Program-made: the position numbers and the translations under genes
In this document: positions 1,979 to 61,784 of the stretch, piece by piece
How the letters are laid out: the number at the start of each line of letters is the position of its first letter
Numbering within the stretch: the stretch's first letter is position 1
The notes under the pieces: generated by a model
Databases searched by the model: none
Seen by the model: the letters and a program-made list of their open reading frames with translations, nothing else
Told to the model about the DNA's origin: nothing
DNA from: Psammoneis japonica
Lineage: Eukaryota
DNA: 64,000 nt
Assembly (NCBI GenBank): GCA_008632985.1
Contig: QPGO01000026.1
Location: 248,001 to 312,000, forward strand
Direction of reading: 5' to 3'

Positions 1979-3089
1979 AAATGCCGCCTATCTAGCTTCT
2001 CAGTGTGGACTTTTGTTTGTCAACTACTATGACACGTCGACTCAAGAGAGAATCCCTTGAATGGAGCCAATCAGAAGAACGCTGTGTTGGTTGTATCCCG
2101 AAGCTTGAATGTTGAACAATACTTACGCAGACTTGTTCTTGCTTCCAAAGGGAATGACAATCCTTTCATCAACAGCGGTAGAAATTGCTGACGCCACCAA
2201 ATCGTTGCTACTAACCAATGTGGGTGTGGTTGGAAAGAAGGAAGCACTCCTCCTTGTGTCGTATTGTTTCAATTTAACAAATCCGCAGCACCCCGCGCTT
2301 GTCTACTTTCCTCAAGCGATGAAAAAGGATGGAATGCGCAATAATGCTCTCATCGTAAGCCGCACTGTGCTTGTCGAGGGCCCGCATTGTTGGAAAGACG
2401 TTGCTGTTCGAGACGTAACTAAGGAATTCTTGTTGGCTACTGGTGACAATGCTGGTTGTCGGTTCAATTATGTTTGACAAGGAAACGCAACCTGCTGTCT
2501 TTTGCATGTGCCAGCTGCCGCACGCGGTGAAACAACAAGATCAAAAACACATTCTGTGCTCTACAACACTTGTCTGATCCATTGTTATAATAACTGTGTA
2601 TTCAAAGTAGAACGTCTCTCTCAATCCACTGCCAGGAGCTTGTCCAAAAGGCGCCATGGATCCTGCCGATGGAACAAATGGATCTGGGAACTGTTCAAGA
2701 TGAGAATCGCTTCCCATGCGGGGGAGCCAGGACTTTGGATTGAACAAAGTCTGTTGTGTTTCGCGGCATAAGCACACTCAACATTTCCTCCCATTCCTTG
2801 TTGTCGGCCGCTCTGACGTTTCCGACAAACAACTCGTTCATCTAGTGATGGTGGAGTGAGCCAACAACAGATTTCTCAACAAGTCATTGCCGCTCATCTC
2901 ATCTGCACAACAACTGTCCAGCCAGCAACAGGCTTCTCATGAAGTTTGCAGAGCAACCTCTTCTGAGAGATGGCTGGCTTGAGGCTCACGCTGCTCCTGC
3001 CCAGAGTTGGGACAGCAAACTTTCTGTGGCAGTGCAATGGTGAACAACTTTGCTCTGCACCACACCGCACCGGCGACATGGTGGTGCAA

Positions 3090-3215
3090 TGAGTCATGTC
3101 ATCCGATCAATGCTGGGTGACATGCTCAAGAGATGCAGATCCAAGGGTGGGCCTCAAAAACATGTGTTCAAGATCAAGGAGCACTTGAAGGAGCACTTCT
3201 TGGGAGTGAACACAG
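3090..3215 (+). pseudogene. Decayed gag fragment related to the neighbouring young Copia
   Basis: VIRSM..KRCRSKGGPQKHVFKIKEHLKEHF aligns to IIRAL..KACKNQGGPKKSVYLIKEYLKKHY in ORF 4293-6371. Confidence 0.7.
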
Positions 3216-3908
3216 CCCAACACTTGGGTTTTCAACATTGACTGGTGACTTGTTTTCATGCTCATTGCTCTGACCACAGGGAATGCCTGAGCACATTCTC
3301 AGAGAAACAATTGATGTGGCAGGTTTTCAGTTTCCTCTTTGAACCATGCTCTGTAGACCTGGTGCTCAACCCGTGCATGTGTTTCTCTGTGCCGTCTTGT
3401 GGCACAAAGAAGAAGCTTGGCTGCAGTGTTGCGCACCCTGTTTTTCTAACATGCAGCATTGACGACAATCAGAAATGAGTCTCTTTGACCCTTCAACCAC
3501 CGGGCTTGAGCAAATTTCCGTGGGTGAAGATTTGCTTGCTTGTGTCACAAACATGGCAAATGAAATAATTTCAGATGTGAGTGACATTTTATTTGCACGA
3601 TTTTGTTTTGGAACATGCGCTCGCCAAAAATTTGGGGGAACCCTTTTTGCAATTTAGAAAGTTCAATGTTGACTTTTAACACTGGGTTTCTTGCAAGCTT
3701 CATCTGTGAACAGAGAGGAACTAAATCTCAACCTTTGACAATGCAGGTTGTCACAAGTTGCTGTCATCACAAACAGAGCAACGATGCCACACCCTTGAAG
3801 CAAATCTCCGCCGGTGGAGATTTGCTCCCAACAAGCAAATGCATGAGGCACACTTTGCGCAGATTGCACCCGAAATGACATTTTTGTGCTGTGCACATCA
3901 CATTGCCA

Positions 3909-4245
3909 TGTCGCGGAACATGACTCAAGCGGGACTCAAGTGATTGGGTCCCGGTCACGAGTGAAGGGTCGTGCCACCGATGACCACAGAAATCGGAGCC
4001 GACCACGAATGCCGCAATCGATCTTGAGGAACAAGATCGATGAATCGAATGGCCGAGGAGCGGCGATTTGACAAGATCGATTTGGTAAGATTGATTTGGT
4101 AAGATTGGTTTGACAAGATTGAAGTCCAGAAGAAGTAGAAAAGCAGATCATAATTTAGCGAGAGTGAGAAATGTGAAGACTATTAATTTTAGTTTTGTGT
4201 GCTACTGACAAGGTGTTAGTAGTGTCGGCATCTGGTTGTCCAACA
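3909..4245 (+). repeat. 5' LTR of young Copia
   Basis: TGTCGCGG...GTCCAACA, repeated at 9390-9726. Confidence 0.97.
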
Positions 4246-4292
4246 CGATATATATCGACAGTTTGTGGCAACACTACATTCGAGAGTAGTAA

Positions 4293-6371
4293 GTGAGAGA
4301 AGCGATGAGCAAGGAAGAACAGACCTACGAGACTTCTTTGTCGTGGAGCGGCAAGAGAGAAGACTTCGAGAATTTTTTGGTGAAATTCGAGGCATTCGAG
4401 AGCGACCACGGTTGTGACGAAGCAACCGATGTGGATCTAGGAGATAAGCTTCTCACCAAGGCGGAATACGTGAATGGAAAGAAGAAAGTAACGCAAGCTA
4501 ATGGTACAGAGACCGAAGAAGACCTCACAAAGGAGGACAAGAGGTTGTACAAGCTGAACGCGAAATCATTTTCGAAGATCATCCGTGCGTTGCCTGAAAA
4601 CTTGATCAAGGCCTGCAAGAACCAAGGTGGACCCAAGAAGTCCGTTTATTTGATCAAGGAGTACCTCAAGAAACACTACTCGGAGCAGAATGTGGTAGAT
4701 GATTACCAAAACCTCTACAAGAAGAGGTTGGAGCTAGAACCTGGAGAGTTCGAGATAGCGCTGTTCTATTTCAACGAGTTGGAGGATATTAACTCCAAGT
4801 TGGGAAAGATTGATGAAAAGTATCGCTTAGATGAGCTTCAGTTGAAGACTGATATCTATTCAAAAGTCCCGGATCAAGGTAACTGGTCCTCTTTCAAGTC
4901 CGAGTATCGCAAGGACGGCGCGATGGAGAACATTGCCTACAGTGCGTTCAAGCAGCACTATGAACGGGAGTGGAAAGCTCATGGTCCACCAGGAGGATCT
5001 ACTACATCTATAGATCGATCTTCTGGAGAGGATAAGACCCTAACTATGAAGGTACAGGGTAGCAAGTTTTTCCCGGGTAATTGTGGGAAGTGTGGCAAGA
5101 AAGGTCACAAGTCAAAATTTTGTCCTGACAAGAAGAACGCCAAGACGAAGAAATTCGATGGCGATTGCTTTTATTGCGGCAAGCATGGACATAGAGCGAG
5201 CGACTGCTTCAAGAAGAAGAAGGATGAAAAGGAGAAAGACGAAGAAACGAACGAGGTTACACTCGGAGTGTTCGATTCCGTCGACTTGGTTGAGGAGGGT
5301 AAGGACCCTATTCCAGACTCCTTCTTCGATACCTTCGATACTAAGCCTGCAGTTCGAGACGATGAGTTCGAGAGAGAGCTTAAGAGGTGGGATACTCGGT
5401 CTGGACTGGGTTACGGCTACGATAGTAGCGGCGAACGCGCGCTGTCATGGTACGAATGGAGCGAGATGGCGGACGATGAGGACGAAGAAGACGATGACGG
5501 CATGAGTATGCCGGAGCTAGAAGGTCCTTTTGTTTCTGATAAGGTCGAGGATGAAAGTATCCCGCCCTTGGAACCGCGGTATGATTCCGACAGCGATTCG
5601 GATGATGACGAGTCATTAGAGCTGATCGGCTCTCAACGCAAGTGCACCAACTGTGACGGGCCTGGACATGTCTATCGAGGCTATCGCACAACGAAGAAAG
5701 TTCAAGACGAGGACAAGGGAGACGAGGAAGACAGTATCCCGCCCTTAGTATCTCGTGGCGGTTATGATAGCGACTCGAGCGACGACGAGTCGGTTGAATT
5801 CGAGGTTGTTTGCTCGTATTGCGGACAGCCTGGACACAAATTCTGCACTCCTTTCCAAGAGTTTTGGAATAACCCGGATGAAGAGAGCGATGATGACAGT
5901 ATTCCGACTCTAGAGAGTGGTATGGACTCGGATAGTGATTCAGAGTCCGAGTTTGATTACGATTCGGACGACGACTATGACGAAATACTGATGTCCGGTG
6001 CGCAGTATGAACCAGAACGTGGCGGTGTAAGGCTACTATTGGACTCTGGCTCGACAGCACATACAAAGAGGTCTGCTGAAGGGATGCGGAACCTCAGGGA
6101 AGTGAACAAAGTCATGAAGGACGCACACGACGGGAGTTCGGTAGCGAAGCTCCAAGGAGATTTTCCATTTACGCGTCAGAATGGGGACGGTACAGTAGTT
6201 ATTACTGAGATGTACGTCCAGCCAAATTTTTCACATAACATTGTGAGTCTGACGAAGCTATTTGAGAAAAATTGCAAACGAGCCATTGTTCTCGAGTGCC
6301 CTGATGGCACGGAATTAATTTTCGAAAAATCAGCGAAAGATGGCTGTTTTATATGGAAGTTGACTCGCTGA
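4293..6371 (+). CDS. Copia Gag-protease (likely start ATG 4305)
   Basis: CCHC knuckles CGKCGKKGHKSKFC and CFYCGKHGHRASDC. Aspartic protease LLDSGSTAH. Confidence 0.9.
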   Translation: MREAMSKEEQTYETSLSWSGKREDFENFLVKFEAFESDHGCDEATDVDLGDKLLTKAEYVNGKKKVTQANGTETEEDLTKEDKRLYKLNAKSFSKIIRALPENLIKACKNQGGPKKSVYLIKEYLKKHYSEQNVVDDYQNLYKKRLELEPGEFEIALFYFNELEDINSKLGKIDEKYRLDELQLKTDIYSKVPDQGNWSSFKSEYRKDGAMENIAYSAFKQHYEREWKAHGPPGGSTTSIDRSSGEDKTLTMKVQGSKFFPGNCGKCGKKGHKSKFCPDKKNAKTKKFDGDCFYCGKHGHRASDCFKKKKDEKEKDEETNEVTLGVFDSVDLVEEGKDPIPDSFFDTFDTKPAVRDDEFERELKRWDTRSGLGYGYDSSGERALSWYEWSEMADDEDEEDDDGMSMPELEGPFVSDKVEDESIPPLEPRYDSDSDSDDDESLELIGSQRKCTNCDGPGHVYRGYRTTKKVQDEDKGDEEDSIPPLVSRGGYDSDSSDDESVEFEVVCSYCGQPGHKFCTPFQEFWNNPDEESDDDSIPTLESGMDSDSDSESEFDYDSDDDYDEILMSGAQYEPERGGVRLLLDSGSTAHTKRSAEGMRNLREVNKVMKDAHDGSSVAKLQGDFPFTRQNGDGTVVITEMYVQPNFSHNIVSLTKLFEKNCKRAIVLECPDGTELIFEKSAKDGCFIWKLTR

Positions 6372-8500
6372 CGGATGTGTCCGAAATGACCGCAGACGTT
6401 TCCGATGGACAGAAATCTGGACAAAAAGAGTCGGACAAGAAAGTCCATGTTAACCGCGCACACATTTTGCTGAACCACATGGGAGAACGCGCGATGAAAA
6501 TGGCGGCAGCAGATCTCGGTTGGAAATTGACCGGTATACCCAAGACCTGCGAGTTCTGTGTCAAGGCAAAGGCTACAGCAAAGCCAACCGTGAAGGCTAG
6601 CGATAAGAAAGCGACCAAGCCTGGTCAGCGGCTCTACCTAGACACGTCAGGACCATACAAAGCGACGCGCGGCAAGAATCGATATCATGTGATGATAGTC
6701 GATCAACTTACAGATCGACTTTGGTCGATGTTCCAAGCAAAGAAAAATGGTTTTACGGACGATATCAAAGCTTTATTGACTAAGCTGAAGGGTCAGGGGT
6801 ACCCAGTCGAGTTCTTACGGATCGACAACGCTCCGGAATGGGGTGCACTCAAGCCAATTTGTGATGAGCATGGGATCACGATCGAGTATACCTCCCCTAA
6901 TACTCCGCAGTTCAACGCGGCAGTCGAGAGAGCGTTCCCAACAGTGCGTAATATGGCATACGCGGTACTGAAAGCATCCGATTTCGACGACGCAGAGCAA
7001 AGTCGGCAATGGGCGAATGCGCTGCAGGACTGCACTATCGTTCGTAACTTGGTCCCACGTGGGGACTGGAGCAATGCTTATGAACCATTTGGAGAAAAGC
7101 CACCCGTAAAAGCCGAAGACCTGGTAGAGTTTGGCGCAAAGGGGTGGATGGCCAAGAGAAACAAGATCAAGGCCAAGTTTCAAGATCGTGCCGAGGAGGT
7201 TCGTCGCGTAGGATACGCTGAGAATCACTCGAGCGATACGTATATTGTTCAAAAGTTATCAAATCGTCGTTGTGTGTTGACACGCGACGTGGTATGGGAG
7301 TCTAAAAGACGATATGATCACCTAGACCCCGAGACAGTGGTCGAAAAGCAAACTCCGCGAGTAACTTGGGCGGACGACGCAAGACCGTCAACAGTGGTTG
7401 AAGAGATATCACGCCCCTCTCAGTCATCCGCAGACGACCCCGACTTTCATGATTCTCATTCACAAATTGAGGAGGGAGAAGAGAGTGCAACAGACGGCGG
7501 GGAATCAACGGATAGCGAAGAAAGTGACTCCGAGATGGGTGCGCCACCTGACGGACCAGGACAGACGGATAAAGAATCAGCTGTGAATAGTCGATTGGAA
7601 CGCGAGTTGAGCAAGCTGAGGACTTCTTATAACCCAGCTGGTCTCCCAAGCGACGACGAGGACGAGGTAGAAGCGGTGAATATGGTCGCAGGATATGTTG
7701 ATCCGAAGAATGATCGCGAAGCGATGACAGGCGACGAAGCTGACGAGTGGTGGAAGGGTCTAGTCACAGAATACGATGGATTTTTCGACTTGAGAACTTG
7801 GATACTGGTCAAGGAAGCCGAATTGAAAGGTAAAAAGATATCCAAGCCGCTATCAACGAAGAACGTCTACAAAAAGAAATTACACGCGATAACAAAAGAG
7901 GTGCGGTATCGCGTGCGCAACTGCATTCGGGGGTTCGATATGATACCCGGAGTTCATTTCGATGAATCTTTTGCACCTACTCCGACGGATCATACTGTGA
8001 GACTCATATTGGCGATATCATTATGGATGCTGGAACAGTTGGAAGTCGATGATATCGACGAAGCCGAGAAGGAGTGGATTGTCGGGCATTTGTTCGATGT
8101 TGTGCAGGCATTTCTGAACTCAGAGATGACTGGACCACCTGTACATGTGCATCTTCCCCCTATGTGGAAGGAGTATTGCGAATATAAAGGTTGGGAATAC
8201 AACGAGAACGATCTTTTTTTGCTCGGAAAGGCGCAATATGGGCAAGTCGATGCCGCGAAGCGCTGGATTGATATGTTTGTCGGAATCATGACTGAAAAGG
8301 GTGGCGTCGAGCTTAAACGAAGCAAGACTGACCCTTGTGTGTTGTACCGTCATGATGACAAGGGGCAATTGGAGATTATCATTTTGATTTATGTGGACGA
8401 TGGTTTCATATGTGGGAGGCCGGAAGTCGTTAAGGAAGCCAAGGACTATTTGGCGAAGAGAGTTAAGATACTGGACATTGACGAATCGACACTCATTTAG
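6353..8500 (+). CDS. Copia Pol: integrase and reverse transcriptase (continuation after 1-nt frameshift)
   Basis: HILLNH...CEFC zinc motif, DDE core (YLDTSG, RIDNAPE, PQFNAAVER), RT DVVQAFL and IYVDDG. Confidence 0.92.
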   Translation: MEVDSLTDVSEMTADVSDGQKSGQKESDKKVHVNRAHILLNHMGERAMKMAAADLGWKLTGIPKTCEFCVKAKATAKPTVKASDKKATKPGQRLYLDTSGPYKATRGKNRYHVMIVDQLTDRLWSMFQAKKNGFTDDIKALLTKLKGQGYPVEFLRIDNAPEWGALKPICDEHGITIEYTSPNTPQFNAAVERAFPTVRNMAYAVLKASDFDDAEQSRQWANALQDCTIVRNLVPRGDWSNAYEPFGEKPPVKAEDLVEFGAKGWMAKRNKIKAKFQDRAEEVRRVGYAENHSSDTYIVQKLSNRRCVLTRDVVWESKRRYDHLDPETVVEKQTPRVTWADDARPSTVVEEISRPSQSSADDPDFHDSHSQIEEGEESATDGGESTDSEESDSEMGAPPDGPGQTDKESAVNSRLERELSKLRTSYNPAGLPSDDEDEVEAVNMVAGYVDPKNDREAMTGDEADEWWKGLVTEYDGFFDLRTWILVKEAELKGKKISKPLSTKNVYKKKLHAITKEVRYRVRNCIRGFDMIPGVHFDESFAPTPTDHTVRLILAISLWMLEQLEVDDIDEAEKEWIVGHLFDVVQAFLNSEMTGPPVHVHLPPMWKEYCEYKGWEYNENDLFLLGKAQYGQVDAAKRWIDMFVGIMTEKGGVELKRSKTDPCVLYRHDDKGQLEIIILIYVDDGFICGRPEVVKEAKDYLAKRVKILDIDESTLI

Positions 8501-8514
8501 GAATTGATTATGAG

Positions 8515-9552
8515 TTGAAGAAAGACGAACACGGTTGGTACTTCGAGTGCAGCATGCGCAAGTACGTGGAGAAGATGGTTGCGGAGTACGAACAACGCTT
8601 CAAGAAGACACTTAAGGACTACGAGACACCTGGGGAGCCAGGGAAGATATTGATGAAGGCGGACGAAGACCATGAGCCAGTCGAGCAAAACGGATATCGA
8701 GCCTTCGTCGGAAAGATCCTATATGCGATGTTGAAGGTCTTACCTGATTGCGCGAATGCGATTAGAGCGCTGACAATGCATTTGACGAATCCAACTAAGG
8801 ATCACTGGCACGCGCTGGACAGACTTATGGGACATCTGAAATTTCACTATCAGCCGTTGAAGTTGAGGTCACCTTTGGAATTAAGGAGCATAGGGATATT
8901 CGACGCTGAGTGGGGGACGGACAAGAATGACAGAAAGAGCATTTCGAGTGACATTTCCACACTGGGCGGTACGTCGTTAACTAATTGGCAATCGAAGAAG
9001 CAGACCTCTGTGGCGCTGAGCAGTTGTGAAAGTGAGACCATAGCGGGCACGGCGTGCGCGCAGAGCATACAATTCCAGAATCATTTATTGGAAGAGCTGG
9101 TAGGTACGGACATGTTGAAGATGCCGAGTTATGCGTACGGAGACAACGCCGCATCACTGTTTCTGGCTGTTAACAACCAAGTGGGACAGCGGACGAAACA
9201 CATTCACATTCGTGATAGATATTTGGGCGAGTTGGTTCAACGTGGAGAGATTGAACCACGTCATGTCAGTACGGAGAAGAACCCGGCAGATGTCAACACC
9301 AAGAACGCGAAGATCGAAACGCACAAGAGACTAGCTCAGAACCTGTATGACGGATTCGTGATGGTTGAACCGGAACCAATCAAGGAGGGTGTCGCGGAAC
9401 ATGACTCAAGCGGGACTCAAGTGATTGGGTCCCGGTCACGAGTGAAGGGTCGTGCCACCGATGACCACAGAAATCGGAGCCGACCACGAATGCCGCAATC
9501 GATCTTGAGGAACAAGATCGATGAATCGAATGGCCGAGGAGCGGCGATTTGA
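8515..9552 (+). CDS. Copia Pol: RT C-terminus and RNase H (after second 1-nt frameshift)
   Basis: DAEWG..DRKS, WQSKKQTSVALSSCESE, DNAAS, RTKHIHIR, NPADVNTK. Confidence 0.92.
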   Translation: MKKDEHGWYFECSMRKYVEKMVAEYEQRFKKTLKDYETPGEPGKILMKADEDHEPVEQNGYRAFVGKILYAMLKVLPDCANAIRALTMHLTNPTKDHWHALDRLMGHLKFHYQPLKLRSPLELRSIGIFDAEWGTDKNDRKSISSDISTLGGTSLTNWQSKKQTSVALSSCESETIAGTACAQSIQFQNHLLEELVGTDMLKMPSYAYGDNAASLFLAVNNQVGQRTKHIHIRDRYLGELVQRGEIEPRHVSTEKNPADVNTKNAKIETHKRLAQNLYDGFVMVEPEPIKEGVAEHDSSGTQVIGSRSRVKGRATDDHRNRSRPRMPQSILRNKIDESNGRGAAI

Positions 9553-9726
9553 CAAGATCGATTTGGTAAGATTGATTTGGTAAGATTGGTTTGACAAGAT
9601 TGAAGTCCAGAAGAAGTAGAAAAGCAGATCATAATTTAGCGAGAGTGAGAAATGTGAAGACTATTAATTTTAGTTTTGTGTGCTACTGACAAGGTGTTAG
9701 TAGTGTCGGCATCTGGTTGTCCAACA
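9390..9726 (+). repeat. 3' LTR of young Copia
   Basis: Copy of 3909-4245. Confidence 0.97.
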
Positions 9727-10207
9727 TTGCCACAAAAGTGCATGACATGTCACAAATCCTAGAGTGGAGCAAATCTCCACCCGTGGAGATTTGCTCCCCT
9801 GATGGTTGAAGGGTCAAGAAAATTTCTGTCACTGGCAAGCACCAGAAATGGATTGGCGCCCACCATCTTCTGAGTCAGTGATGCAGAGTCATGTGTGAAT
9901 GCATCACTGGTGTGACCAGCAATGGATTGGTGTGGTGATGGGTGAATCCATTGCTGGCAAGCACCACACAAATGGATTGGCACCCACCATCTTCCGAGTC
10001 AGTGATGCAGCATGACAGGCAAATCCATTGCTGGCAAGCACCTGCAACAGGGTGATGGACTTGTGCAACTTGATGTGATGCAACATTGTGGGATGAATGA
10101 TCTTGTTTCTGTGCAAATTAAAGATGCGCAGTTTCACTCTCCATCCCTGTGCATCTCTTTCAGTCAAACCACAATGAGATGAGCTCCTTTTGCCAAGCAT
10201 GATGGCT

Positions 10208-15909: not shown

Positions 15910-16115
15910 TTTGTTCAGGTGGGTTGCCCCCTCTCTCCACCTCCTTGCACTGACAACTGCTCCTGCTTGCAGTGGCAGAACCTCATCCAGCACATTGTGG
16001 AACTCTTTCAAAGGAGGCTCCTGTCACACAAGCTTGTGTTTTTGCGACGGTGACCCGTCCCAAGGAAGATGGCAAAGATTCTTCTGACAATGGCGTCAAT
16101 GAATGAGAGATGTTT
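15910..16115 (+). pseudogene. TA-free remnant paralogous to the C-terminus of gene 16600-18807
   Basis: FVQV..LQWQNLIQHI..TQA.V..VTRP..NE versus FVEV..WQWQNLVQHV..TQARV..LTRP..NE. Confidence 0.75.
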
Positions 16116-16599
16116 GCAGTTGAAACACCCTTCTTGCAACGTCCAATTGTTCTCTCCCAAGTGACTCGCACCACCTGAATTTTATCCTCTGCTAGCTAGA
16201 GTAGCTAGCTGGCAGCTGCTAGGGCCTGCTCTAGCTCTAGTAGAGATCCGAGAAGAGTTGAGTCTCGTGAAACTGTGGCTCACCAGCCAAGACTCACTTG
16301 CGGCGGATAAGATCAATTCATAGGACTATTTCTACGTAGAAATGCCGTAGAATGGAAGCTTCAACTTCACGCCAAAAACGCGAAGTTGAAAGTCCGTGCG
16401 CGCGTCGCGAGGATATCCTCATTAGTTTTGTTCTTTGGAAGAGTCGTCATATCGCTCTCAAGACTGCAATCAAACGATCCAAATGCTAACAAGCCTCTCA
16501 TACAACCGTCTTATACCTGTTTGAAGCCATAGCGAGACTTCGTTTCGTCAAAGAAAGAGGAATAATCCATCGCAGCGCACAAACCTACCGCGAGAGAGC

Positions 16600-18807: not shown

Positions 18808-19223
18808 AATCCGTGTGGGAGAAGGAGCTGCACGGTATATTGCGTGATGTATTTTCTGATTTCTTCAGCAATGGCTTGAAGCGTTCAAGCTCATGATCTG
18901 CTCCGTTCTTTCTGGTAGGGTTATCATTTAGAAGAGAACGCCGTGCACGGTGCCAATTTCTCTATTTTTAATTCTATATCTTAAACGTCTAAGTAAGAAG
19001 GCAATATAGAATGTATATGATCTTCTCGACTCCCTGCCATTCCTTTCATAGATGCTATGAACTACCACGTCTTGCTGAAATCCAACTTGAAGTTCGTTGC
19101 TTTCGCTCAGTCTCGTACACCCACTTCTTCTTCTTCTATATCAAGGTAGCCGAGGTTTTCAACTCAAATCAGATTAACTTTCAGTTGGCATGAAAATCCG
19201 TTTCAAGTACTTCTAGCAACATC

Positions 19224-34580: not shown

Positions 34581-34654
34581 CTGACCTGGCGTTTGCAGCA
34601 AGCATCTTTTTTTTTGAATTGTTCAATGGTTTGGTGACAGTGGCCACTTCACCA

Positions 34655-46175: not shown

Positions 46176-46619
46176 CTGGGTAAAAATTAATTTGGTGTTT
46201 CGCGTGACAGTCTGGCAGGGCTTGGACGGCCGTTGCAAAAAAGGCGTGCACAGAAAGTGCGCTGGTTTCTACGCACACAAGCAAACACACACAAAGACTT
46301 TGAGGAGCCCGCCACACGTAGAATGTGTGCTAAATGTCACGCACATAAATGTCTTGACAGAAAATGGTGACACCAACGGAATGACTGCACACGCGCATGC
46401 ACACGCAACAGATGAATGACCGCTGTCTTGCTGTCGCACCCACATGCTGTGTCCTGCGAGAGGGTGCACGTAGCCAAATTTCAGCACCAGGCGCTGCGTG
46501 CAGTTGAAGTCTGCCACGTAGAACCTGGCACTGATTCTACGCATGTCCAAAATTCGTGGCAGGCAGGCAGTGCTTCAGACAGAAATGTCGCGCAAAACAC
46601 CAAATCAATTTTTACCCGG
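46176..46619. mobile_element. MITE with ~34-bp TIRs inside the LINE 3' region
   Basis: CTGGGTAAAAATTAATTTGGTGTTTCGCGTGACA versus TGTCGCGCAAAACACCAAATCAATTTTTACCCGG. TSD unclear. Confidence 0.75.
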
Positions 46620-52600: not shown

Positions 52601-52845
52601 CTCCTAACCTGCGACAACTCTCATCTGAGAGTTGGGAGATGTCGACAGAAGGTTGAGCAGCAACTGCATTGTTGGCAGCAGGACCAACAACAGTGACAGA
52701 ATTGACAAAGCTGCCAATGTCTTGTTGCACTAGATGTTGCAATTGCGAGCAGAAAAAGGGGAGAAGTTCTCCAAAAGAAGGGCGGGAAACTGCACGCGCA
52801 AGCAAAGAGCGCGTGAATCGCGCATGAGTTTGCACTGTGTTGACA

Positions 52846-53276
52846 ACACCAAAACACTTGTGCATGACAACAAGGACATTGGGCCGGCAGGAAAAGAGGG
52901 AGATTTCAGGTTGCACTGACAGAAGAGATTCAAGACCAAGTGGCTTGACAGTGTCCTTTATGGTGTTCTTCATGCAGTCTTGAACTTCTGTTTCATTCTG
53001 ATGCACCAGTGATGGCCGACCGTTGAGATCTGCAAGAAGATGTGAGGGCCTTGTGTTTCTGCAATTGGTGCAGACATGGCGTTTCGCAAGCAGCTCCTTG
53101 ATGTCAGCAGCCTCCCCTGTTAGGATGGCAGCATCGTCATGACCTGTGTCTTCCATGTGAGCTGAGCTCTGCAAGCCTGCGTTGTCGAGCAACAACTCTG
53201 GGGAACAACTGCGTTGCAGTTTTGCATGAGATGCGACATCGTGGTGTCTTCCTCTTCTCCTTCTTCTCTCCCCCAC
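52846..53276 (-). pseudogene. CRN-like gene, 5' half upstream of the Copia-2 insertion
   Basis: NETEVQ..EISLFSCRPNVLVV..FG joins GCIVPVVKVKKPG across the element, giving an (R)PD..ExK-like nuclease motif. Confidence 0.6.
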
Positions 53277-56200
53277 TTGAACGACATTGTTGCAGCTCTT
53301 TTTGTCTTTAATGGCAAGTGCGACTCATGCAGCATGCAGCAACAGCAGCTGTCAACCAATGTCAACACACAAAAAAAACACACACAGACCATTTTCATGG
53401 AAGATGGCCAGACGAAATGGGACTCGCGAAAGCAAGCACATGCAAGCGAGCAAGATTTTCCCGCCCAAGCCACATGCAATTTAGAGTCTCCTGCCGCCCC
53501 CCGACACATTCCAAGCAAGTCATGCAAACATGTCATGTGCTCTTTATGTGCAAAAGACAAGTTCTAGCCACTGATGTGTCATCTTGGCCTGTTCATTGAG
53601 TTCCGATGTGTCCCTTCCTTTCTGCACAATTTCTGCGTAAAATTGGCACTGCGATTTCCCACCTCACGAGAAAACGCCATGCTCATGAAGAATGAAGAAC
53701 AGTGTTCAATGACACTCATTGAAAGGAAATTGCTTGTTGAAAGGAAATTGCTTTTCCAGAATTTTGCTTGATGGCAGATGGCTTCGGCAAATGTGCTTTG
53801 CGACTTTGCAATGTCTGATTGTCGCTCGCCATCAAGTGTTGAATTGCTGCAGGAGAAGCACGGTGGAAATCTTCTACACATGCATCCCATTTTTCAGATT
53901 TTCAATCTGTCATCTTCTGTGCAAAATGATCCATCTGTGTTGATTTCAGAATCTGCAAGAAAGTTTCAGGGGCCGAATAAAATCCAACATTTTTGAATGG
54001 AAAGCAAGTCTGGAATCTGGATCCCATCTGTCTTTCCCCCTCCATGGAACAAATCTGCACACAAGCTCACAGCTTTTCACACCAACCCCAGCAGCCTTCT
54101 GCATCACACACCAGAATTTTTAAAATTTGTTTGCTCAGTCAGTGATGTGTCATTGTGAGTTGACAACCACCGATTTTTTGCTCGCGACACCACCACGATG
54201 ACAGGTTCTGTCCAACGAGTTTGGGGCCACCCGGAATGGTGGTCACCAAGCCATTTGGGTGCAGCCACATCAATGAGGCACTTGCGGACCATGTGTGTCT
54301 CATTGGCTTGGCAATTCTTTGTGGTTGACAAATGAATGATGGCAAAGGATTCAGGTGTTGTTTTGTCATGCTTTGGAGTGAAGAGCCAGATCAGTCGAGT
54401 CAGCCCCTGCAGAAAGGAGCCTGTGCAGGCCTGCTCTGAGCCACAAGCACATGTGGCAAGCTTGTGGGATGTACGTTGACCATGCTGGGCCCACTTTTGC
54501 CACACCTGGCCCATCCTGCAGAAGGGTTCTTCATCAAAGTTTGCATCAATTTGCCGATTTCCAGCAAAAACTGACCCCAGTTTTAGCCGAGTCATTGAAA
54601 ATCTGTGCTTTTTGAAAATCAGCAACTGTTTCTGCAGACTCCTTGACAATCTGCAGTGAATCTGAACCCCAAACCTGTGCCACAGATTTTCCACAACAAT
54701 CGGGGTGCTTGTTGCAGCATCAACAGCCAAAACGTGCCACTCCACTGCACCATCGGGCATTTTGCTGGAACCACATGAAAGGCATGTGTGAAACAATCTC
54801 AGAAGATCCATTGATGCCATTGATTGATGTCATGTGATTCACATTTTGAATCATGCTTGATCAAAATGCTGCCATTTGCTGACTCATGTTTCAGCAAATT
54901 TTGATGAAACATGATGTTTTGGCAAAATCTGCTGAAACACAAGTCCTGTTTGAGCAATTTGAGCTGTGGTGGTGTTTTGTTGCACGCTCGTGCATGAAAC
55001 AACCAACAAACACACAAGACACAAATCGCGTGCTTGGGATTGCCATTGCTGGCCATCACCCGTCACCCATCAAAACAGTGTTAAAAGTTCTCATGCCATC
55101 AATGCCAATTGGAAACAGCCCTTTTTAAGACGTTTTAAACACCACATTTGGTGTTGAGCCCAAAATTGAACCCACCACATTTGGTTTTGCAACTCACTTT
55201 TAAGCTGCCCATGAATCAAAACAAGTGCAAGATTTTTTGTGGGCAACATCACTCCCTCCAAGAAGTGGCACAGCAAGTTGCAGCCACAATTGTTGTCATC
55301 ATTCTCACCACTTTTGACTCAGCAGCAACTGCATTTCCATGCACCATCATGTCTGACTGCTGCAACAAAGAAAACATTGCTGATGCCATTGGAGCTGGTG
55401 TGTGTCCTCATTGTGATGCATTCCCTGTCACAGATGACACAACATTCTCCAGCTGCTGCAGCAGAGACTGTCAGCAGAGGCTGTCATTTCAGTCAATCAT
55501 GGAGAGCATTGGATCAGCAAACTCAACCATTTTGTCATGTTGCCATTGTCAAAACCAATGGTGAAACTTTCTGCACCATGCAGCACTTGAGCATGTCAAG
55601 AAACCCCATTTTGACACAGTTCATCAACACAAACTCAATGCCACTGTGCCCACTGCACAGAATCCACCTGCAAAACTCTGGGATTGCAGGTGTGACACTC
55701 AAATCAACAAGCCATGAAACTTGACTGCAACATCAATGTTTTCAAATCTTGTTGCTGGCGTTGTGGTTGCTGGCTTGGCAGTGGCCAGCTGGGTGGTGTT
55801 TTGTTGCATCAATGGCATTGCTTCCTGTGACTTTTTTTGGAGTGTTGTTGTCATTCAGAAGCATGCAGAAATCAATTCCTTGACTTTTTTGCCGGCAGAA
55901 GTTGGCAGCAATTTCTTGAAAATCTCTCTGGAAAGCACAGGGTGAGTGTGGGGCATCAAAACACAAATCAGCAACGTCCATCTGTTGTCTGTGTGTCCCA
56001 AGAGGAGAGGGAGGTTCTTGGAGGGAACATTCTGCTGCTTCTGGCAATGCAGCAGGATCCATCATGGTGGAAGCAGTTTTGCCAGAAAAAGTTGTGTGAA
56101 AATGCTGCACTTTAGAGAGGCACTGATCAATGACAAAAGGTCACTTGAAGATGATCAAAGAGTGGAAGTGCATTGTTTCAAGTGTGGAAAATTCATTTGC

Positions 56201-57899
56201 TTCAAACTTGTGTTGACAGAGACAATCGCTGAATGGAAAATTGAAACACCATGTGTGGTGTTTCAATTTGTTGAAACACCTTTCCAATTGGCATTGAGAC
56301 ATCACATGCAAACAACTTCACCGACAAGTTGCCATGGCACACATCACATCAGAGCTCTTTGCAACAGCATTTTAAAAGCTTTTTCAATCATGGCCATTGA
56401 AGTGAAACTCTTGGGATGTGCAGTTTTTTGTTGCCAATTGTGACATTCCCACAAATGAGCTGACAATTTTTCAAGAAAAATGTGCTTTGAGACATGTTTC
56501 AATCATTGGCAATGAACCAGACAAAGTCATCATTTCCCTGACAATGCTGTGTCTCTGTCACAAATGTCATGTCACAACAAATTTTGTCACATGAATTTTT
56601 GTTTGTGACAAATGTCGCCAAATTTTACAAATTGCCCCATCTGTTCAAATGATGACATTGCCAAAGTGCACATGTGCTTGAGTGATGAACAAACAATTTG
56701 TTGCTGAGCTGAACAATGGCTTTGTCCAGTTTGTCACCAATGATTGCATTTTGTCTCAATTGCATCATTTCCTGGCATGTTGTCAATCCATTTGGGAAAA
56801 TGTGCCAAGCGCGACAAATTGCCCTGTGTCCCAGATGGCACAATGAGATTGACTGCAATGGTGACCCATTTTTTGTCCCATGATGCAACAATCAACCACA
56901 CCATTTGATCCCCAGTGTTTCATCCAGTCTGTGGCACAGAAATTGGTTCAATGTGTTGCACTTGTGATGGGTTGTGGTTTCATTTTGTGCTTGAGCTGTT
57001 GAAAATGTCATTGCATGTGATTGTTGGCCATGCGCGCCAACTTTGAACCACAAATCACCAAACAAACAACACCATTGAGTCCATCTTTTTTTGCCAGCCA
57101 GTTTTGCTGCTGTTTTAATGAGCAGAACCTTTGCTGCAGTGGCCTCATGCACCATGCAACTTGCTCCTTCTCAAAGGACATCATGAACCAATTTTTTCTA
57201 CACAACAAACACACAGTCTTTTTGCATCATGTGTTGCATTGCATTGTCATGCAACAGTCCACACACAGGACAAATGGGGTCCATGCCATTGACAAATGAA
57301 ACTTGTGCAATGTTGCATTTTGGGTGAGAGGCTTTGAAAATCATGTGTGGGTGCACCATGGTGGCCTCACAACCTCCAGAAAACAAAAAGGAAAGCACAA
57401 GAACACAAATGGCAAGGAGCAGGGCAAGCTTTCAAGACAAAATCAAAATTCGATTTTGGTTTTGACAAAAATGATGTGAGTGTGGTGCAGCAGGACCAGC
57501 GCCAGTGTCCTGCTGTGGATGTTTTGCATGTTTGAGCAATTGCTCAAACTTGTGCAAGTTTGAGCAATCTCACAAGCATGAGAGATTGCTCAAACTCAGC
57601 AAACTTGAGAGCAAATGGGGGTGCAAGTTTGAGAAACTGCTCAAACTTTCAGTGGTGAAAGCCAAGACTGAAACTCTCAGTCGTGAATGTCAAATGTCAA
57701 TTGTTGTGGTGTTCACTCTTGATGTCCATTGCAGCTGCACACTCATGCATTTTTGAGCATTTTTCCCATGTGGTGCTGGCTGCAAACAACATCAGAAACT
57801 GTTGGTGGAAGGATGGACCATGCCATGGTTGAATGAGCCAGCAGCTTTCACAGTCAGCAAACTGACAAATGCAGCAACCACAAATGACTTGATTGGGCA

Positions 57900-58600
57900 G
57901 AAAGATGTTTGGCATGAGCACAGAACTTCAGCCTCATGGTGGGACCCAGAGCTTGTTAAATGACCTGACAACCCACTGAGCACAATGCACAATGCTCCAC
58001 TTCAAGACAAACCACAAATGCAACCTCAACTGAAACAATGACAACAATGACCTCACTGTGTTTGTTGCAGTTGTCACCAAACCCAAATCTGAATTTGGGC
58101 TCAACACCCACATTTGCAGCAATGGGAAACAATGCAGTGCAATGATCAACAAATGCACCGTGATTGGCCGGATGCGCCACACCCCTCAACCCCATGTCCC
58201 AGTTTTTTTTGTGTAAAAATTGAGACCTTTCTAACATGCCCAAACAAAGAGATGAAGATTTCAGGCATGGAAGCACTGAGAACATTCTTGGAAGAAGTCA
58301 ACTCTACAGGCTTCTGATGCGCATGAATCACATCAGCAATCTGATTGTTTTTGTTGTCAAGAATCTGAACATCCTTCTGATGGGCAAACAGAATCTGACT
58401 CCTTGACAGTTGAAGGTGAAAAGCAGCAAGGGTCATGGGCTTGAAAGTTGCTGCTGAGCCACAAACGTCAAATGAAGAGTGATCTCTTGACATTGTTGTT
58501 CTTTTGGCTTGAAAAAATGTCAAGGGAAGCTTGATCCACTGTGGCATCAGCAGCATCGTCAGCAGCATGGCTGCTGTCAGCAATGGAAGAAGATGTTTTG
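57900..58600 (-). mobile_element. ORF1 fragment of a LINE related to 37576-46938
   Basis: FDVCG..FKPMTLAAFHLQL..QILFAHQKDVQILDNKNNQI versus FDIRG..CKPMTLTTAHLQV..QILFACQSDARIFDNHNNRI. Confidence 0.75.
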
Positions 58601-59849
58601 ATGGGTCAGAAGTTCTGCAGAGGGCCTGGCATTGAAAACACATGCAGGCAGGCAAGTCAACAGACAGGTGCAAGAAATTGGGAAAACAGATGCAGGAGCA
58701 GAGATTGAGCAAGGACGCAGCCAACTGCAATGAAGTTTGGTTGAAGCAATTCTGCGATCACATGGACAGCAAAGAAGAAACCCAAGAAGAAGATGGTGAT
58801 CAGCCACAGAAGGAGAAAGATGCCAAGGAAGACATTGAAAACCTGAATTTGTGGCTTGTGGAAATGCAGCAACAGGCAGCTTTTTAATTTGCATTTGGCA
58901 ATGATTGCCAAAACAAAAAAAGAAAGCAGAAAAAACCATGGACAGGTGGAAAGGAACAGACAACAGATGCATCAATGGAGCACACAGGAAAAATGCAACC
59001 GCGTCAGAATTGTTCATGCACTGGTGCATGATGGAGCCAAGTCATTGGCCTGCATTGCAAATGAAGCAAGACAGTGTGACTGCCCTCATTGAATGTGGTG
59101 GAACCCCAAATGCAATGAACCCAAGACCTGCATGGAAAATGAGAGACAGACCAACATTGTTCAATTGAGCCTGACTCAAATCATTCTCCCCTCAGAGATG
59201 CAATGTGCAAAATGGGGGGTGAGGCACCAAGACTTTGTTTGGATGATGGAAGTTTGTGGCCCAGTTGAGATGTGATCATTGGAACAAATCCACTCATCAA
59301 ATTGTGGTTTTTCTCCACAGAATGGAGGTGATCACTGCCTGTGCCTCAGATGACAGTGCAGAAGGAGACAGCAACTTTGGTGGATGAAGGATGGGCACCA
59401 AATTAAAGTCTTCAAAGCCCCCCAGCCTGGCTGCAAGCTTCTGCCACCAAGAAGCTCATGTGTTGCAAGACAGAGCTCTTGTTGCCCCTGAAACCTGCAA
59501 GCAAGCTCAAGGCAGTTGTTGCTGCTGCTCATCTAAATTTGATCCCTGGGTCTGCTTGAGAACACAAGCTCCCACTTTGTGCTGTTTCTTGGGGGCCATG
59601 CAGCAAAGCCTTTCTTTTAGAGAATGACCCCCCCCCCCCCCTGCCACATGATGTGCCCATCCTGCCAATGCAGCCACAAATCACAGCCATTGCCTGAAGC
59701 TGATGGAGGTGGCAAAGTTGGTGCCTGCGATGGAGGGCCATCACAGCAGGGTGTTTAATCAACAACCCCCAGTGCTGAAGCTGCTGCCACTTTGTCTGCA
59801 ACAGCAGCATGACATGGTGAAAAAAGAACACTGCAAAAAAATGACAAAC

Positions 59850-60330
59850 TGAGAAATCCTCACCTGCAACCTGGGATGCTCTGAATGCCAGAGCATTGAA
59901 AACATGCAAGCCCTGATTGACAGTCTCTGTCATTGTCAAAGTCACACCAGCATTGCCTCAGTGGAGCTGTGCCAAGGGGAGCCTGTTGCATTGCCCCACA
60001 GTGCATGAAAGCAGAGCATAGACATGGAGAACAGGGCCAGACACAGCACTGGGTTGGGTGTTGGGGGCATGTTGTCAGGGTCACAACAGAGTGTTGTCAT
60101 TTCTGTTGACACCTTTGCCACTTTGTTTGTGATGGCAGCAGCACAAAATTGCACTTGCAACAGAAATTTCATGGCAAGAAACCACTGTTGAGAAAAGGAT
60201 GACAACAAAAACAAGGGAGCTCCACCTGCAACCCAGGACACTTTGAGTGCCAGAGTGTTAAAAACGCTTGAGCTCTGCTCAACAATTGGAGTGGTTGTCT
60301 CACTGCACACAACACGAAGGTTAAAAGGTG
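59850..60330 (-). pseudogene. Frustulin-like acidic Cys-rich repeat pseudogene
   Basis: PLRQCWCDFDNDRDCQSGLACFQCSGIQSIPGC resembles the frustulin CEGDCD..DC..GL.CFQR....VPGC repeat. A second decayed copy lies at ~60225-60305. Confidence 0.6.
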
Positions 60331-61784
60331 GCAAGATGAAGAACTCAAATGTGCAGAAACAACAAAATGGATGATTGATGCCCCATGACACCACTGGCAT
60401 CTCCCTCACAGCATCCCAGCAAAAATGCAGAGAGAGGCTTTGCAGGTCATGTTGGGTCAAGGGCAGCCAAATGTGTGCTGGACTCAGTGTCTCCCAGCTT
60501 GCTGGGTCTGATGTTGCCAGCAGCCAGCAAATCCTTTGTCGACACAGGAGGTGTGTTGTCAGGCATTGCAAGAGCTGATCTCAGTGCAGTTGACAACACT
60601 GGATTTGGTGCAGATTGGGGTGGGCATGATCGGTGGTGAAATGCAGTTGCCATGACAACAGCTGGCATCTTGCACACTTTGCTGCTGTTGACAAGGGATG
60701 CAAAGATTTTTGTTTGGTGGAAAACAGCATTTTGAGAGAAGGAAGCATGCATGCATGCATGCATGGAGTGGGTGAAGAGGAGATCAGTCAATCCTTGTGA
60801 TCAAGCAATTCTCACCTGTGGCTTGGGGCTGGCTCTTGCCCATTCCGTTTGGAGTGCTTCAGTCCAGAATGGCAGCCATTGTGTGTGACGATGCAGCCAG
60901 AGAAACACAAGATTTGGAAAACACTCAAGAATGAGCTGCAACAACAACAGAGCTTGCCACTCTCTCTGACAGTGACCAAGAGGAAAAGAAGCAAACAGTG
61001 ACCTGTTGTGAGCAGTGTGTGCAAGTGAAGTCAAGTGCCTGCCAGTGAATGCAGATGAGGCCACAGCCAGTCAGAACAAGTCCCGGGATTGTCATCTCAA
61101 GCTCTGAGCTCTTGAGCCAAATGTGTTGAAGCTCATGACTGTGGCTGCATGGCACAATCAGAAACAAGACTTTGCTCTGGGCCAGTGATGTTGGAAACAT
61201 CTTTTTTGTTTTGGGTTGTCGAAGCTGTTGTGTCATCATACAAAAACAATCCAAAAACACAACTGAGCATCTGTGATTCACGGTTTATGTGTTCAAGAAA
61301 ACTGAATGTCATCTTTCTTACTTGCATGCCAAGCAGCTGCCACAGAGGAGCAAGGAGAATGACAATCAAAGATGGATTTGAACACATCGAATGTGTCGTA
61401 TCTCAGGATCTTTGTGAGAACCCCGATGAAGCTCGTGAAACTTCCTTGGGTCCTACAAGCACTTGCTATAAAGTCGCATCTTCTTCCTTGCAGATGCCAA
61501 GCATTGCGCTGTCGCTTAAAGATTACACATCCATTTGTTTTGACCAATCCCTCCATTCGATGTCTTCTTCTTGTGCTACGAGTTCAGTGCCAACTTAGCT
61601 ATTGTACGTTTTTGGATCAATATCTGCCTTAAACCTGATGCTGATCCTTCTATGAAATATACAAGAATTGCTATTTTGCATTTACAACAAACAAAACTCA
61701 GTGCCAAACTGGAAGGGTGAAAAGCTTGACTGCACCCGGCGCAAATTATACCAGAAACACCTTGCGACAATCAGAACCTCTCCA

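Follow-up and report, generated by a model that had tools for sequence, protein, structure and literature searches.

Fungal RIP changes C:G to T:A, mainly by turning CpA into TpA, and so creates TpA; it requires duplication of the target and a sexual phase. Adenine deaminases of the TadA/ADAT2-3 and ADAR kinds are known as enzymes acting on RNA, with a 3' preference for G in the case of ADAR; the natural target A34 has the invariant U33 before it and thereby sits in a T-A context. In the alga Bigelowiella natans, a preprint describes hypermutation of TpA to TpG or CpA in integrated foreign DNA (Mettrop et al., bioRxiv 10.64898/2026.01.13.699255). According to that preprint, 230 of 231 mutations in two viral inserts were A>G or T>C, the GC-biased mutations are stated to be all on TpA, CpG hypermutation was not seen in the viral regions, and the main target was a single-copy viral insert; the process was measured in real time in asexual mutation-accumulation lines with Illumina reads, and an ADAT2-like candidate, Bn78255, was proposed from sequence and predicted fold only (bioRxiv 10.64898/2026.01.13.699255). 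For natural adenine deamination of chromosomal DNA, the only report is that on amphioxus ADAT2, as cited in the same source (bioRxiv 10.64898/2026.01.13.699255). The original prediction for the present locus, which knew of no such system, is superseded on this point.

The window analyzed here, a 64-kb stretch of DNA from Psammoneis japonica, holds some 44 kb of dead transposon-type DNA in which nearly all TpA, and locally nearly all CpG, is now TpG or CpA; this is real hypermutation at the level of DNA. As in B. natans, so far as the preprint describes it, A:T is changed to G:C only at TpA, yielding TpG or CpA according to strand, and the effect is sharply local, in clusters that are poor in TpA and rich in CpA plus TpG. 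With fungal RIP the process shares dense in-place transitions that disable transposons, a dinucleotide context, and sharp limits, but here TpA is lost (207 sites, against 2,839 expected) and copy number does not predict mutation, and the B. natans process runs in asexual lines. The blocks resemble the outcome of 5mC-driven CpG decay in being depleted of CpG and enriched in TpG and CpA, but the loss of TpA is beyond the reach of CpG decay, as had been argued beforehand from the same DNA, and so is the conversion of TAY codons to TGY or CAY. Deamination of A to I by TadA/ADAT2-3 or ADAR reads as A>G, the change seen here, but those enzymes are known on RNA and the changes in the window are at the DNA level.

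Extent of TpA Loss and Organization of the Window

A two-state HMM of TA among YpR dinucleotides delimited six TpA-poor blocks (2613-4084, 9704-11819, 13023-16177, 20152-27556, 30312-38214, and 38929-61238), which match the coordinates of the original prediction. The first was used as 2613-3908, because its final 176 bp belong to a young Copia LTR, which begins TA-poor; the HMM also marked the corresponding TA-poor part of that element's 3' LTR (9348-9565). Together the blocks span 44,078 bp, with the TpA expectation given above taken from base composition, and carry 4.7 TpA per kb, compared with 41.1 per kb in 17,880 bp of normal sequence. Within blocks, TpA observed/expected (o/e) is 0.03-0.17; most normal segments have 0.45-0.80, with an intermediate 0.34 in segment 11824-13018, which contains a MITE-like copy. 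For the whole window, o/e is 0.23 for TpA, 0.59 for CpG, 1.53 for TpG, and 1.56 for CpA. The transition at block edges takes less than 100 bp; around 27560, successive 100-bp counts of TA run 0, 0, 0, 0, 1, 0 on one side and 11, 2, 3, 3, 1, 3 on the other. The thresholds of the preprint for clusters of low TpA and high CpA plus TpG are passed by 36 of 63 1-kb bins, in runs such as bins 21-27, 31-38, and 53-61.

TpG and CpA each reach 1.5-2 times expectation in the blocks. The predicted excess of these dinucleotides is therefore real, but the accompanying loss of CpG had been missed (1,094 observed, 2,661 expected), so that part of the excess stems from CpG. In 1-kb bins, CpG o/e falls to 0.02-0.12 at 21-27 kb, 0.06-0.24 at 31-35 kb, and 0.03-0.29 at 54-61 kb, and TpA loss exceeds CpG loss in every block. 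This CpG loss may be a sign of 5mC in these putatively silenced domains. Two classes of block can be distinguished: in class I, TpA and CpG are both nearly lost, and in class II, TpA is nearly lost and CpG o/e is 0.36-0.73. The features of the window are as follows.

2613-3908: TpA-poor block, left portion of an older element interrupted by the young Copia (HMM block 2613-4084, TA o/e 0.09, CG 0.58)
3068-3223: Copia gag-like remnant (tblastn with the young Copia gag, E 2e-7)
3909-9726, plus strand: young Copia LTR retrotransposon, unmutated (zf-CCHC, RVT_2; YVDD at 8390-8401)
9727-10207: TpA-poor flank between young Copia and Gypsy (within HMM block 9704-11819, TA o/e 0.14)
10208-15909, minus strand: hypermutated Gypsy LTR retrotransposon (rve, RT_RNaseH_2, RVT_1; LTRs 10208-10640 and 15476-15909)
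12378-12775: MITE-like insertion within the Gypsy, partial TpA depletion (TA o/e 0.28, CG 0.80); ends about 90% alike to 38203-38271 and 38941-39000
15910-16177: TpA-poor right flank of the Gypsy (within HMM block 13023-16177; sharp edge at 16180)
16183-20150: island of normal composition (TA o/e 0.56, CG 0.92)
16600-18807, plus strand: ORF for a low-complexity, cellular-looking protein (no family in a Pfam search; weak relatives with a common module of about 150 aa, two of them with kinase or CDC48_N domains)
20152-27556: class I block of unrecognizable origin (TA o/e 0.03, CG 0.16, TG 1.63, CA 2.03; no credible match in Pfam and TE-protein comparisons)
27564-30306, minus strand: host ABC-transporter gene of normal composition between two hypermutated blocks (ABC_tran E 2e-16; TA o/e 0.62, CG 0.89)
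30312-35000: class I block of unrecognizable origin (1-kb bins, TA o/e 0.02-0.08, CG 0.06-0.24; zero matches in a Pfam search)
35001-38202, minus strand: class II block (TA o/e 0.00-0.09, CG 0.36-0.73)
36915-37619, minus strand: Copia RT remnant in this class II block (RVT_2 E 5e-20; HVDD at 37131-37142)
38203-39000: MITE-like element with terminal inverted repeats and very high copy number, this copy unmutated (TA o/e 0.77, CG 1.68)
39001-54000: class II block (TA o/e 0.02-0.24, CG 0.43-0.73; Pfam domains Exo_endo_phos, gag_pre-integrs, SH3_retrovirus)
40442-45747, plus strand: LINE in this class II block (ORF against homologue P0001, E 6e-68)
46615-49682, minus strand: Copia gag/integrase remnant in the same block (Pfam search)
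54001-61238: class I block of unrecognizable origin (1-kb bins, TA o/e 0.03-0.06, CG 0.03-0.29; zero matches in a Pfam search)
61239-64000: host genes, normal composition (TA o/e 0.52, CG 0.98)
61904-62687, minus strand: glutathione peroxidase exons (GSHPx Pfam match)
62874-63998, plus strand: La-domain ORF (La Pfam match)

The young Copia has LTRs (3909-4245 and 9390-9726) that are 100% identical over 337 bp, an internal region with TA o/e 0.66 and CG 1.19, and TTGCCA on both sides, a likely target-site duplication. This element, the MITE-like copy at 38203-39000, and the host genes are all of normal composition, as predicted. The expected range of targets holds for LTR elements and the LINE but not beyond: of the two MITE-like copies one is normal and one partly depleted, and Pfam and protein comparisons across the 64-kb window found no host pseudogene affected by hypermutation.

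Contigs assembled from a public DNA run (X1, about 60x) cover 24745-36004 with seven differing letters and reproduce 24745-27555 of the first large class I block, so that the pattern recurs in sequencing data, although X1 is perhaps the same sample as the window's assembly and may not be independent. The ABC-transporter gene has zero listed differences from these contigs. Among the six listed single-copy differences, none falls at TpA, of which about 21 are left in the covered hypermutated stretch, and four are CpG against TpG or CpA.

Direction, Context, and Timing of the Changes

The direction of change is evident from the proteins of the dead elements. The Gypsy was compared with the first 40 polyproteins by id having at least 950 aa, among 120 listed references. 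Where the share of Tyr in a column was 60% or more (30 columns), the Gypsy carries Tyr once, Cys 11 times, His 10 times, and Phe 3 times, with the codons CAT (8), TGC (6), TGT (5), and CAC (2); Phe is retained in 21 of 26 columns and Trp in 16 of 17, and 40 conserved Arg columns show 6 Cys, 2 Trp, and 2 Gln, in line with CpG decay. Similarly, 25 Tyr of homologue P0001 align to 0 Tyr, 4 Cys, and 4 His in the LINE. The reading of Tyr as Cys or His is thereby upheld quantitatively, and the individual motifs first quoted for it were recovered (HVDD on the minus strand at 37131-37142, GHCHI on the minus strand at 13268-13282, and CKPGGT and TCTRG on the plus strand at 40871-40888 and 41303-41317).

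The changes are specific to TpA. Where a first-position A>G is inferred in the Gypsy, the preceding base is T in 19 of 22 codons, as against 35 of 114 unchanged G-first codons (Fisher p = 1.4e-6); of 26 codons at which L, I, or V has become P, S, T, or A, 21 read NCA (NTA>NCA). The base 3' of the adenine also matters: in an additive model of surviving TpA sites against a baseline of other sequence, k for A, C, G, and T is 0.33, 1.53, 0.79, and 2.43. The resulting order T>C>G>A (TAT>TAC>TAG>TAA) was returned by 500 of 500 bootstraps and is common to both block classes; for either baseline, r is 0.98.

Both strands are affected equally. Sense-strand TG and CA counts in four retroelements are 461/488, 144/166, 507/498, and 292/330, and the two outcomes are interspersed at random (runs z -0.75 to +2.05); with Cys and His occurring together in the Gypsy, the earlier claim of both outcomes in one copy stands. 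Editing of sense RNA is therefore excluded.

The Gypsy LTRs, which are 87.3% identical, differ almost only at YpR dinucleotides (44 of 54 differences), so the changes were made in place, after integration. The 54 comprise 21 CG against TG or CA, 10 TG/CA doubles (20 positions), 3 TA against TG or CA, 7 other transitions, and 3 transversions. The pair shares 11 CpGs and has 21 half-mutated ones, and by our estimate about 5 of the 10 doubles could derive from CpG; a comparison of the LTRs by itself therefore cannot separate out the decay of TpA. In a second pair (35877-36114 and 52608-52845), YpR dinucleotides account for 25 of 26 differences.

Targeting and Candidate Mechanisms

We consider it probable (roughly 0.8) that the blocks are dead Gypsy, Copia, and LINE elements and older unrecognizable DNA, hypermutated in place at TpA through targeting of silenced or foreign chromatin rather than of homology. 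On this model, TpA in integrated DNA is converted to TpG or CpA by A:T>G:C on either strand, at a rate that depends on the 3' base (T > C > G > A), and CpG decays more slowly to TpG or CpA in the same blocks. Once mutated, a site has lost TpA on both strands, so it takes no second hit and creates no CpG.

The simplest chemistry would be context-specific enzymatic deamination of adenine, with the inosine product being read as G; an enzyme of the TadA/ADAT type may be responsible. The same targeting could act through a modified thymine (of the 5hmU or base-J type) or 6mA at TpA, misrepaired or miscopied. TpA being palindromic, A>G on one strand is indistinguishable from T>C on the other, the context rule can just as well be stated for R-T-A, and the sequence of the window fits both chemistries alike; but deamination to inosine yields A>G directly, we know of no route from 5hmU or 6mA to a clean transition, and we regard this alternative as unlikely.

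Targeting follows element boundaries within 100 bp, spares host genes, and is independent of copy number. Gypsy, Copia, and LINE elements make up the recognizable targets, no origin was recognized for the three class I blocks, and composition is normal in the genes for ABC, GSHPx, and La. That all recognizable targets belong to transposon families, and that the Copia family at 36-38 kb has further copies whose differences are mostly at YpR, could speak for RIP-like sensing, in which duplicated DNA is recognized and mutated. However, the most repeated element, the MITE-like copy at 38203-39000, has an X1 contig depth of 10,793-62,259, compared with about 60 for single copy, and a TpA o/e of 0.77; the young Copia is untouched; the most depleted blocks, including most of the X1-covered class I stretch (24745-36004, at 90% likeness or more), lie at single-copy depth; and the main B. 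natans target was itself single copy (bioRxiv 10.64898/2026.01.13.699255). Targeting does not track copy number, and this agrees better with chromatin being marked as silenced or foreign than with homology sensing, which appears quite improbable; the "repeat-directed" element of the original prediction is not supported. Its observation is confirmed and its interpretation partly supported.

ADAR-like editing of retroelement RNA, fixed by reverse transcription, could draw on the 5'-U preference typical of ADAR (bioRxiv 10.64898/2026.01.13.699255), but it is very hard to reconcile with nearly equal TG and CA on the sense strand, a single copy in which Tyr has become Cys at some sites and His at others, and LTRs of one element that diverged after integration. 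The 3' order T>C>G>A is likewise unlike the ADAR preference for G. A sequencing or assembly artefact from modified bases in repeats might also recur in X1 if that run is the window's own source, but we give it very little credence, since X1 contigs match 11 kb with 7 differences, since evolutionary patterns are seen in the in-frame changes of Tyr to Cys or His, in the TG/CA doubles between LTRs, and in the young Copia that lies intact, with TTGCCA flanks, inside a depleted block, and since the B. natans preprint used Illumina reads (bioRxiv 10.64898/2026.01.13.699255). That the blocks were TpA-poor on arrival, or that selection and not mutation bias removed their TpA, is scarcely credible: TpA is mildly low everywhere (o/e 0.45-0.8 in normal parts), but conversion has specifically struck codons for conserved Tyr, Ile, Leu, and Val, frameshifts and disrupted active-site motifs mark the elements as dead, and LTR divergence bears the same signature.

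In-place hypermutation at TpA may be the same process in the window and in B. natans, judging from its signature. TpA-poor coding sequences in the B. natans preprint are enriched in RT and endonuclease Pfam families, and the targets here are Gypsy, Copia, and LINE elements; the viral inserts described there retain TpA (Rho 0.45 in a giant-virus insert), whereas LTR and LINE elements in the window fall to o/e 0.03-0.17. The main text of the preprint leaves aside CpG, flanking or trinucleotide context, and retrotransposons, all three of which the window shows. What the window adds to that main text is the 3'-neighbor rule, a loss of CpG from the blocks that lose TpA, and LTR and LINE elements with TpA almost entirely gone. 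With TpA loss and slower CpG decay acting together, both palindromic YpR dinucleotides would drain into TG and CA.

Depleted blocks and their contents

Over its 64,000 bp the window is poor in TpA (observed/expected ratio [o/e] 0.23) and CpG (0.59) and rich in TpG (1.53) and CpA (1.56). A two-state HMM, with the share of TA among pyrimidine-purine (YpR) dinucleotides as its input, called TpA-poor blocks at 2613-4084, 9704-11819, 13023-16177, 20152-27556, 30312-38214, and 38929-61238, thereby recovering the block coordinates of the original prediction. The first block was trimmed to 2613-3908, its final 176 bp being the TA-poor start of a young Copia LTR; an additional small block (9348-9565) is the same LTR start. 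TpA o/e is 0.03-0.17 within the blocks versus 0.45-0.80 in most normal segments, and is intermediate (0.34) in segment 11824-13018, which contains a MITE. Base composition predicts 2,839 TpA and 2,661 CpG for the 44,078 bp of blocks, which hold 207 and 1,094, respectively. Block edges are sharp (at most 100 bp): counts of TA per 100 bp run 0, 0, 0, 0, 1, 0 and then 11, 2, 3, 3, 1, 3 across position 27560, and six zeros and then 3, 1, 5, 6, 5, 4 across 61238. Arithmetic from the HMM segments gives an equal total YpR density in depleted and normal DNA (233-242 per kb), as a pure transition process predicts.

On the plus strand of 20152-27556, TG (919) exceeds CA (728), possibly through ancestral composition or a strand effect; the remaining blocks are balanced. 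A repeat of approximately 150 bp (27607-27750 and 61659-61808, 81% identical), each copy lying just beyond the right edge of a different depleted block, could be chance, a small element, or a boundary sequence. The scaffold gap of 565 N at 254-818 falls within an apparent host gene.

Features of the window (coordinates, strand where noted, description)
3909-9726, young Copia; 337-bp LTRs 100% identical; zf-CCHC and RVT_2; YVDD intact; TpA o/e 0.66
10208-15909, minus strand, Gypsy; rve, RNase H, and RVT_1; LTRs 87.3% identical
12378-12775, MITE-like insertion in the Gypsy element; TpA o/e 0.28, partly depleted
16600-18807, low-complexity ORF; normal-composition island; weak relatives look cellular
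27780-29296, minus strand, ABC-transporter gene; normal-composition island
36915-37619, minus strand, Copia RT remnant, depleted
38203-39000, MITE-like element, 798 bp; TpA o/e 0.77, CpG o/e 1.68
40442-45747, plus strand, LINE, depleted
46615-49682, minus strand, Copia gag/integrase remnant, depleted
Glutathione-peroxidase exons and La-domain ORF; normal-composition islands

The blocks fall into two classes. In class I (20152-27556, 30312-35000, and 54001-61238) TpA and CpG are both nearly gone; no credible Pfam match was found there in 111 ORFs of 62-99 aa or in longer ORFs, and no tblastn match to Gypsy, LINE, or Copia proteins. In class II, which houses every recognisable retroelement, TpA is nearly gone and CpG o/e is mostly 0.4-0.75. 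A 40-mer search in purine/pyrimidine code for hidden homology between blocks gave no pairs beyond those of blastn. The young Copia is nested in an older depleted element; the young and old Copia RTs (36% over 53 aa) are too diverged for codon-level comparison.

The MITE-like family (38203-39000 and 12378-12775) has terminal inverted repeats beginning AGACGGGTTCCAG, and its two copies are alike only at their ends of approximately 60-70 bp. The ORF at 16600-18807 encodes 735 aa, acidic and Ser/Pro-rich, with an internal tandem duplication (17734-17943 and 17944-18165, 84% identical); an unnamed module of approximately 150 aa, matched by residues 185-340, is present also in kinase- or CDC48_N-domain proteins. 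Loss of TAA and TAG stops in depleted blocks leaves TGA alone, giving long spurious ORFs in 39434-49652 and other blocks, including 41081-43987 (968 aa) and 44077-45750 (557 aa).

Direction, place, and strand of the changes

The Gypsy coding region was aligned by tblastn to the protein P0003, and the conservation of each column was judged by 40 reference Gypsy polyproteins (of 120 listed, the 40 that come first in id order at a length of 950 aa or more; 41-57% identity). Thirty columns are 60% Tyr or more; the element's residues there include 1 Tyr, 11 Cys, 10 His, and 3 Phe, with the codons CAT (8), TGC (6), TGT (5), and CAC (2). Conserved Phe and Trp are retained in 21 of 26 and 16 of 17 columns, respectively; conserved Arg is retained in 26 of 40, and another 10 of the 40 carry Cys, Trp, or Gln, which is the CpG signature. 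When the depleted LINE is aligned to its only homologue (P0001, 27% identity), 25 Tyr of the homologue meet Cys in 4 places, His in 4, Phe in 4, and Tyr in none. The central claim of the original prediction, that TAY codons had become TGY or CAY and that the two outcomes stand side by side in a single copy, thus holds. Inferred first-position A>G replacements in Gypsy (I>V, T>A, K>E, N>D, M>V) come after a T in 19 of 22 instances, compared with 35 of 114 unchanged G-first codons (Fisher p = 1.4e-6), and 21 of 26 L/I/V>P/S/T/A replacements have NCA codons.

The two LTRs of one element are identical at integration. Those of the Gypsy element have since come to differ at 54 positions out of 433: 21 are CG versus TG/CA, 20 belong to 10 TG-versus-CA doubles, and 3 are TA versus TG/CA, which leaves 7 transitions of other kinds and 3 transversions. 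Another repeat pair (35877-36114 and 52608-52845) has 25 of its 26 differences at YpR dinucleotides. The mutations must hence have occurred within the chromosome. The Gypsy LTRs share 11 CpGs and have 21 half-mutated; from these counts we estimate that approximately 5 of the 10 doubles could stem from CpG, and the remaining doubles would need another ancestor, most simply TpA.

RNA editing before reverse transcription is excluded, because the sense strands of four retroelements have TG and CA in nearly equal numbers (461/488, 144/166, 507/498, and 292/330). Strand-coordinated mutation tracts were likewise rejected, TG and CA being interspersed at random (runs z -0.75 to +2.05).

A flanking-base rule for TpA loss

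For each TpA-centered tetranucleotide, density in the blocks was divided by density in normal DNA. The resulting survival ratio is 0 for ATAT (0 versus 65 sites), 0.004 for ATAC, 0.035 for both GTAC and ATAG, 0.073 for ATAA, 0.12 for CTAC, 0.14 for GTAA, 0.19 for CTAG, 0.30 for CTAA, and 0.54 for TTAA. An additive model, in which the adenine of each strand adds a rate that depends on its 3' neighbor, fits the ratios (r = 0.98) with the estimates k(T) = 2.43 [2.06-2.89], k(C) = 1.53 [1.29-1.83], k(G) = 0.79 [0.58-0.99], and k(A) = 0.33 [0.18-0.48]. The order T>C>G>A was recovered in 500 of 500 bootstraps, and was kept with a transposon-only or a non-transposon baseline and in both class I and class II blocks. 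Surviving sites measured against a baseline, as distinct from observed mutations, thus point to a putative rule TAT>TAC>TAG>TAA, with TTAA nearly resistant; by symmetry, it is equally a rule R-T-A for thymine.

A flank preference for CpG loss, with TCGA and ACGA lost fastest by baseline comparison, was left unconfirmed by the LTR pairs, in which the base 5' of the mutated C is A in 10, G in 8, T in 7, and C in 6 cases, and that of conserved CpGs is G in 14, A in 9, T in 7, and C in 4.

We give roughly even odds to the predicted chemistry, conversion of adenine to inosine. The TadA/ADAT enzymes target A34 in U33-A34, a T-A context with which that found here agrees; the 3' preference is unlike that of ADAR.

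The target of the process and its relation to Bigelowiella natans

The window was compared with Logan contigs (approximately 60x) of a public DNA sequencing run, X1, which is possibly the window's source sample and whose independence is uncertain. X1 contains 96% of sampled words from 20001-30000, and its contigs, which lack cover at 20001-21334 and 23336-24002, span 24745-36004, where 7 letters differ. Three features do not have the pattern of an artefact: codon conversions in frame, divergence between LTRs, and a young Copia that is intact inside a depleted block. All six listed single-copy differences between the window and X1, within 24745-36004, lie in depleted DNA, with none at TpA and none in the 2.7-kb ABC-gene island; four are CpG versus TpG/CpA (32237, 32487, 34358, and 34819). 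There is in this a hint of rapid CpG change still under way in class I blocks.

The original prediction had the process directed at repeats. X1 depth over 38203-39000 is 10,793-62,259, compared with approximately 60 for single-copy DNA, which suggests hundreds of copies of the MITE-like family, yet the copy here has a TpA o/e of 0.77; covered class I DNA is mostly at single-copy depth. At two listed sites, where this copy reads TTATT and TTACA, 58% and 86% of X1 depth reads TG, suggesting mutation in other members of the family. Age or chromatin state fits the targeting better than copy number. The TpA- and CpG-poor stretch 24003-24669 has a depth of approximately 2,339 (approximately 40x single copy), and loose ends are numerous at 24423; this depleted sequence therefore exists in many similar copies.

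We consider it likely (probability about 0.8, for everything except the enzyme) that a chromatin- or silencing-addressed process converts TpA in place. CpG loss in the same domains is most simply explained by putative 5mC.

The phenomenon is already known, contrary to the prediction that it was undescribed: the main text of a 2026 preprint describes TpA hypermutation in the alga B. natans (bioRxiv 10.64898/2026.01.13.699255). What stands of the original interpretation is a DNA-level, TpA-specific A>G change; that it was repeat-directed or new does not. According to the preprint, 231 of 302 nuclear mutations in mutation-accumulation lines fell in integrated giant-virus and virophage regions; 230 of these 231 were A>G or T>C, all GC-biased ones being stated to lie at TpA, and the rate there was approximately 1000x background. 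It also reports 124 genomic clusters in which TpA is low while CpA+TpG is high, enrichment of TpA-poor CDSs for RT, endonuclease-RT, and DDE Pfam families, and, as its proposed cause, an ADAT2-like protein deaminating adenine. The preprint's cluster thresholds are passed by 36 of 63 tested 1-kb bins of the window; its main text leaves CpG, flanking or trinucleotide context, and retrotransposons unmentioned. Our literature searches found no other report of TpA depletion of repeats, and turned up nothing on nuclear 5mC in B. natans. The window contributes detail, not discovery, with three additions: transposons that have lost nearly all TpA, the TAY rule, and the accompanying loss of CpG.

By our arithmetic, the rates in the preprint's main text correspond to roughly 1e-5 per TpA per generation (bioRxiv 10.64898/2026.01.13.699255), a pace that would strip an addressed element of most TpA in approximately 1e5 generations. 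This fits a pristine young Copia next to elements with nearly all TpA lost.

More tentatively, and with the odds somewhat against it, a single silencing-coupled pathway may act on transposons and viral inserts alike and drive both YpR palindromes to TG/CA. A natural adenine deaminase of chromosomal DNA with a T-A-Y preference (TAT>TAC>TAG>TAA) would remove TpA fast, and CpG would be lost more slowly in CpG-methylated domains, class II and then class I being successive stages. If true, a natural genome defence by adenine editing of DNA would here, for the first time, have both a defined sequence rule and a chromatin address.

Spurious ORFs of up to 968 aa may be mistaken for genes by gene finders. 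The preference TAY >> TAR, with TTAA nearly resistant, offers a testable sequence rule for any candidate enzyme, and the co-loss of CpG suggests an address in methylated or silenced chromatin. Ordinary LTR and LINE transposons have here been brought near complete TpA loss. Hypermutation of this type, A:T>G:C and targeted at foreign DNA, is fungal RIP in mirror image. If enzymatic, the process would represent a natural adenine editor of chromosomal DNA, with a bearing on genome defence, mutation-rate theory, and base-editing tools.
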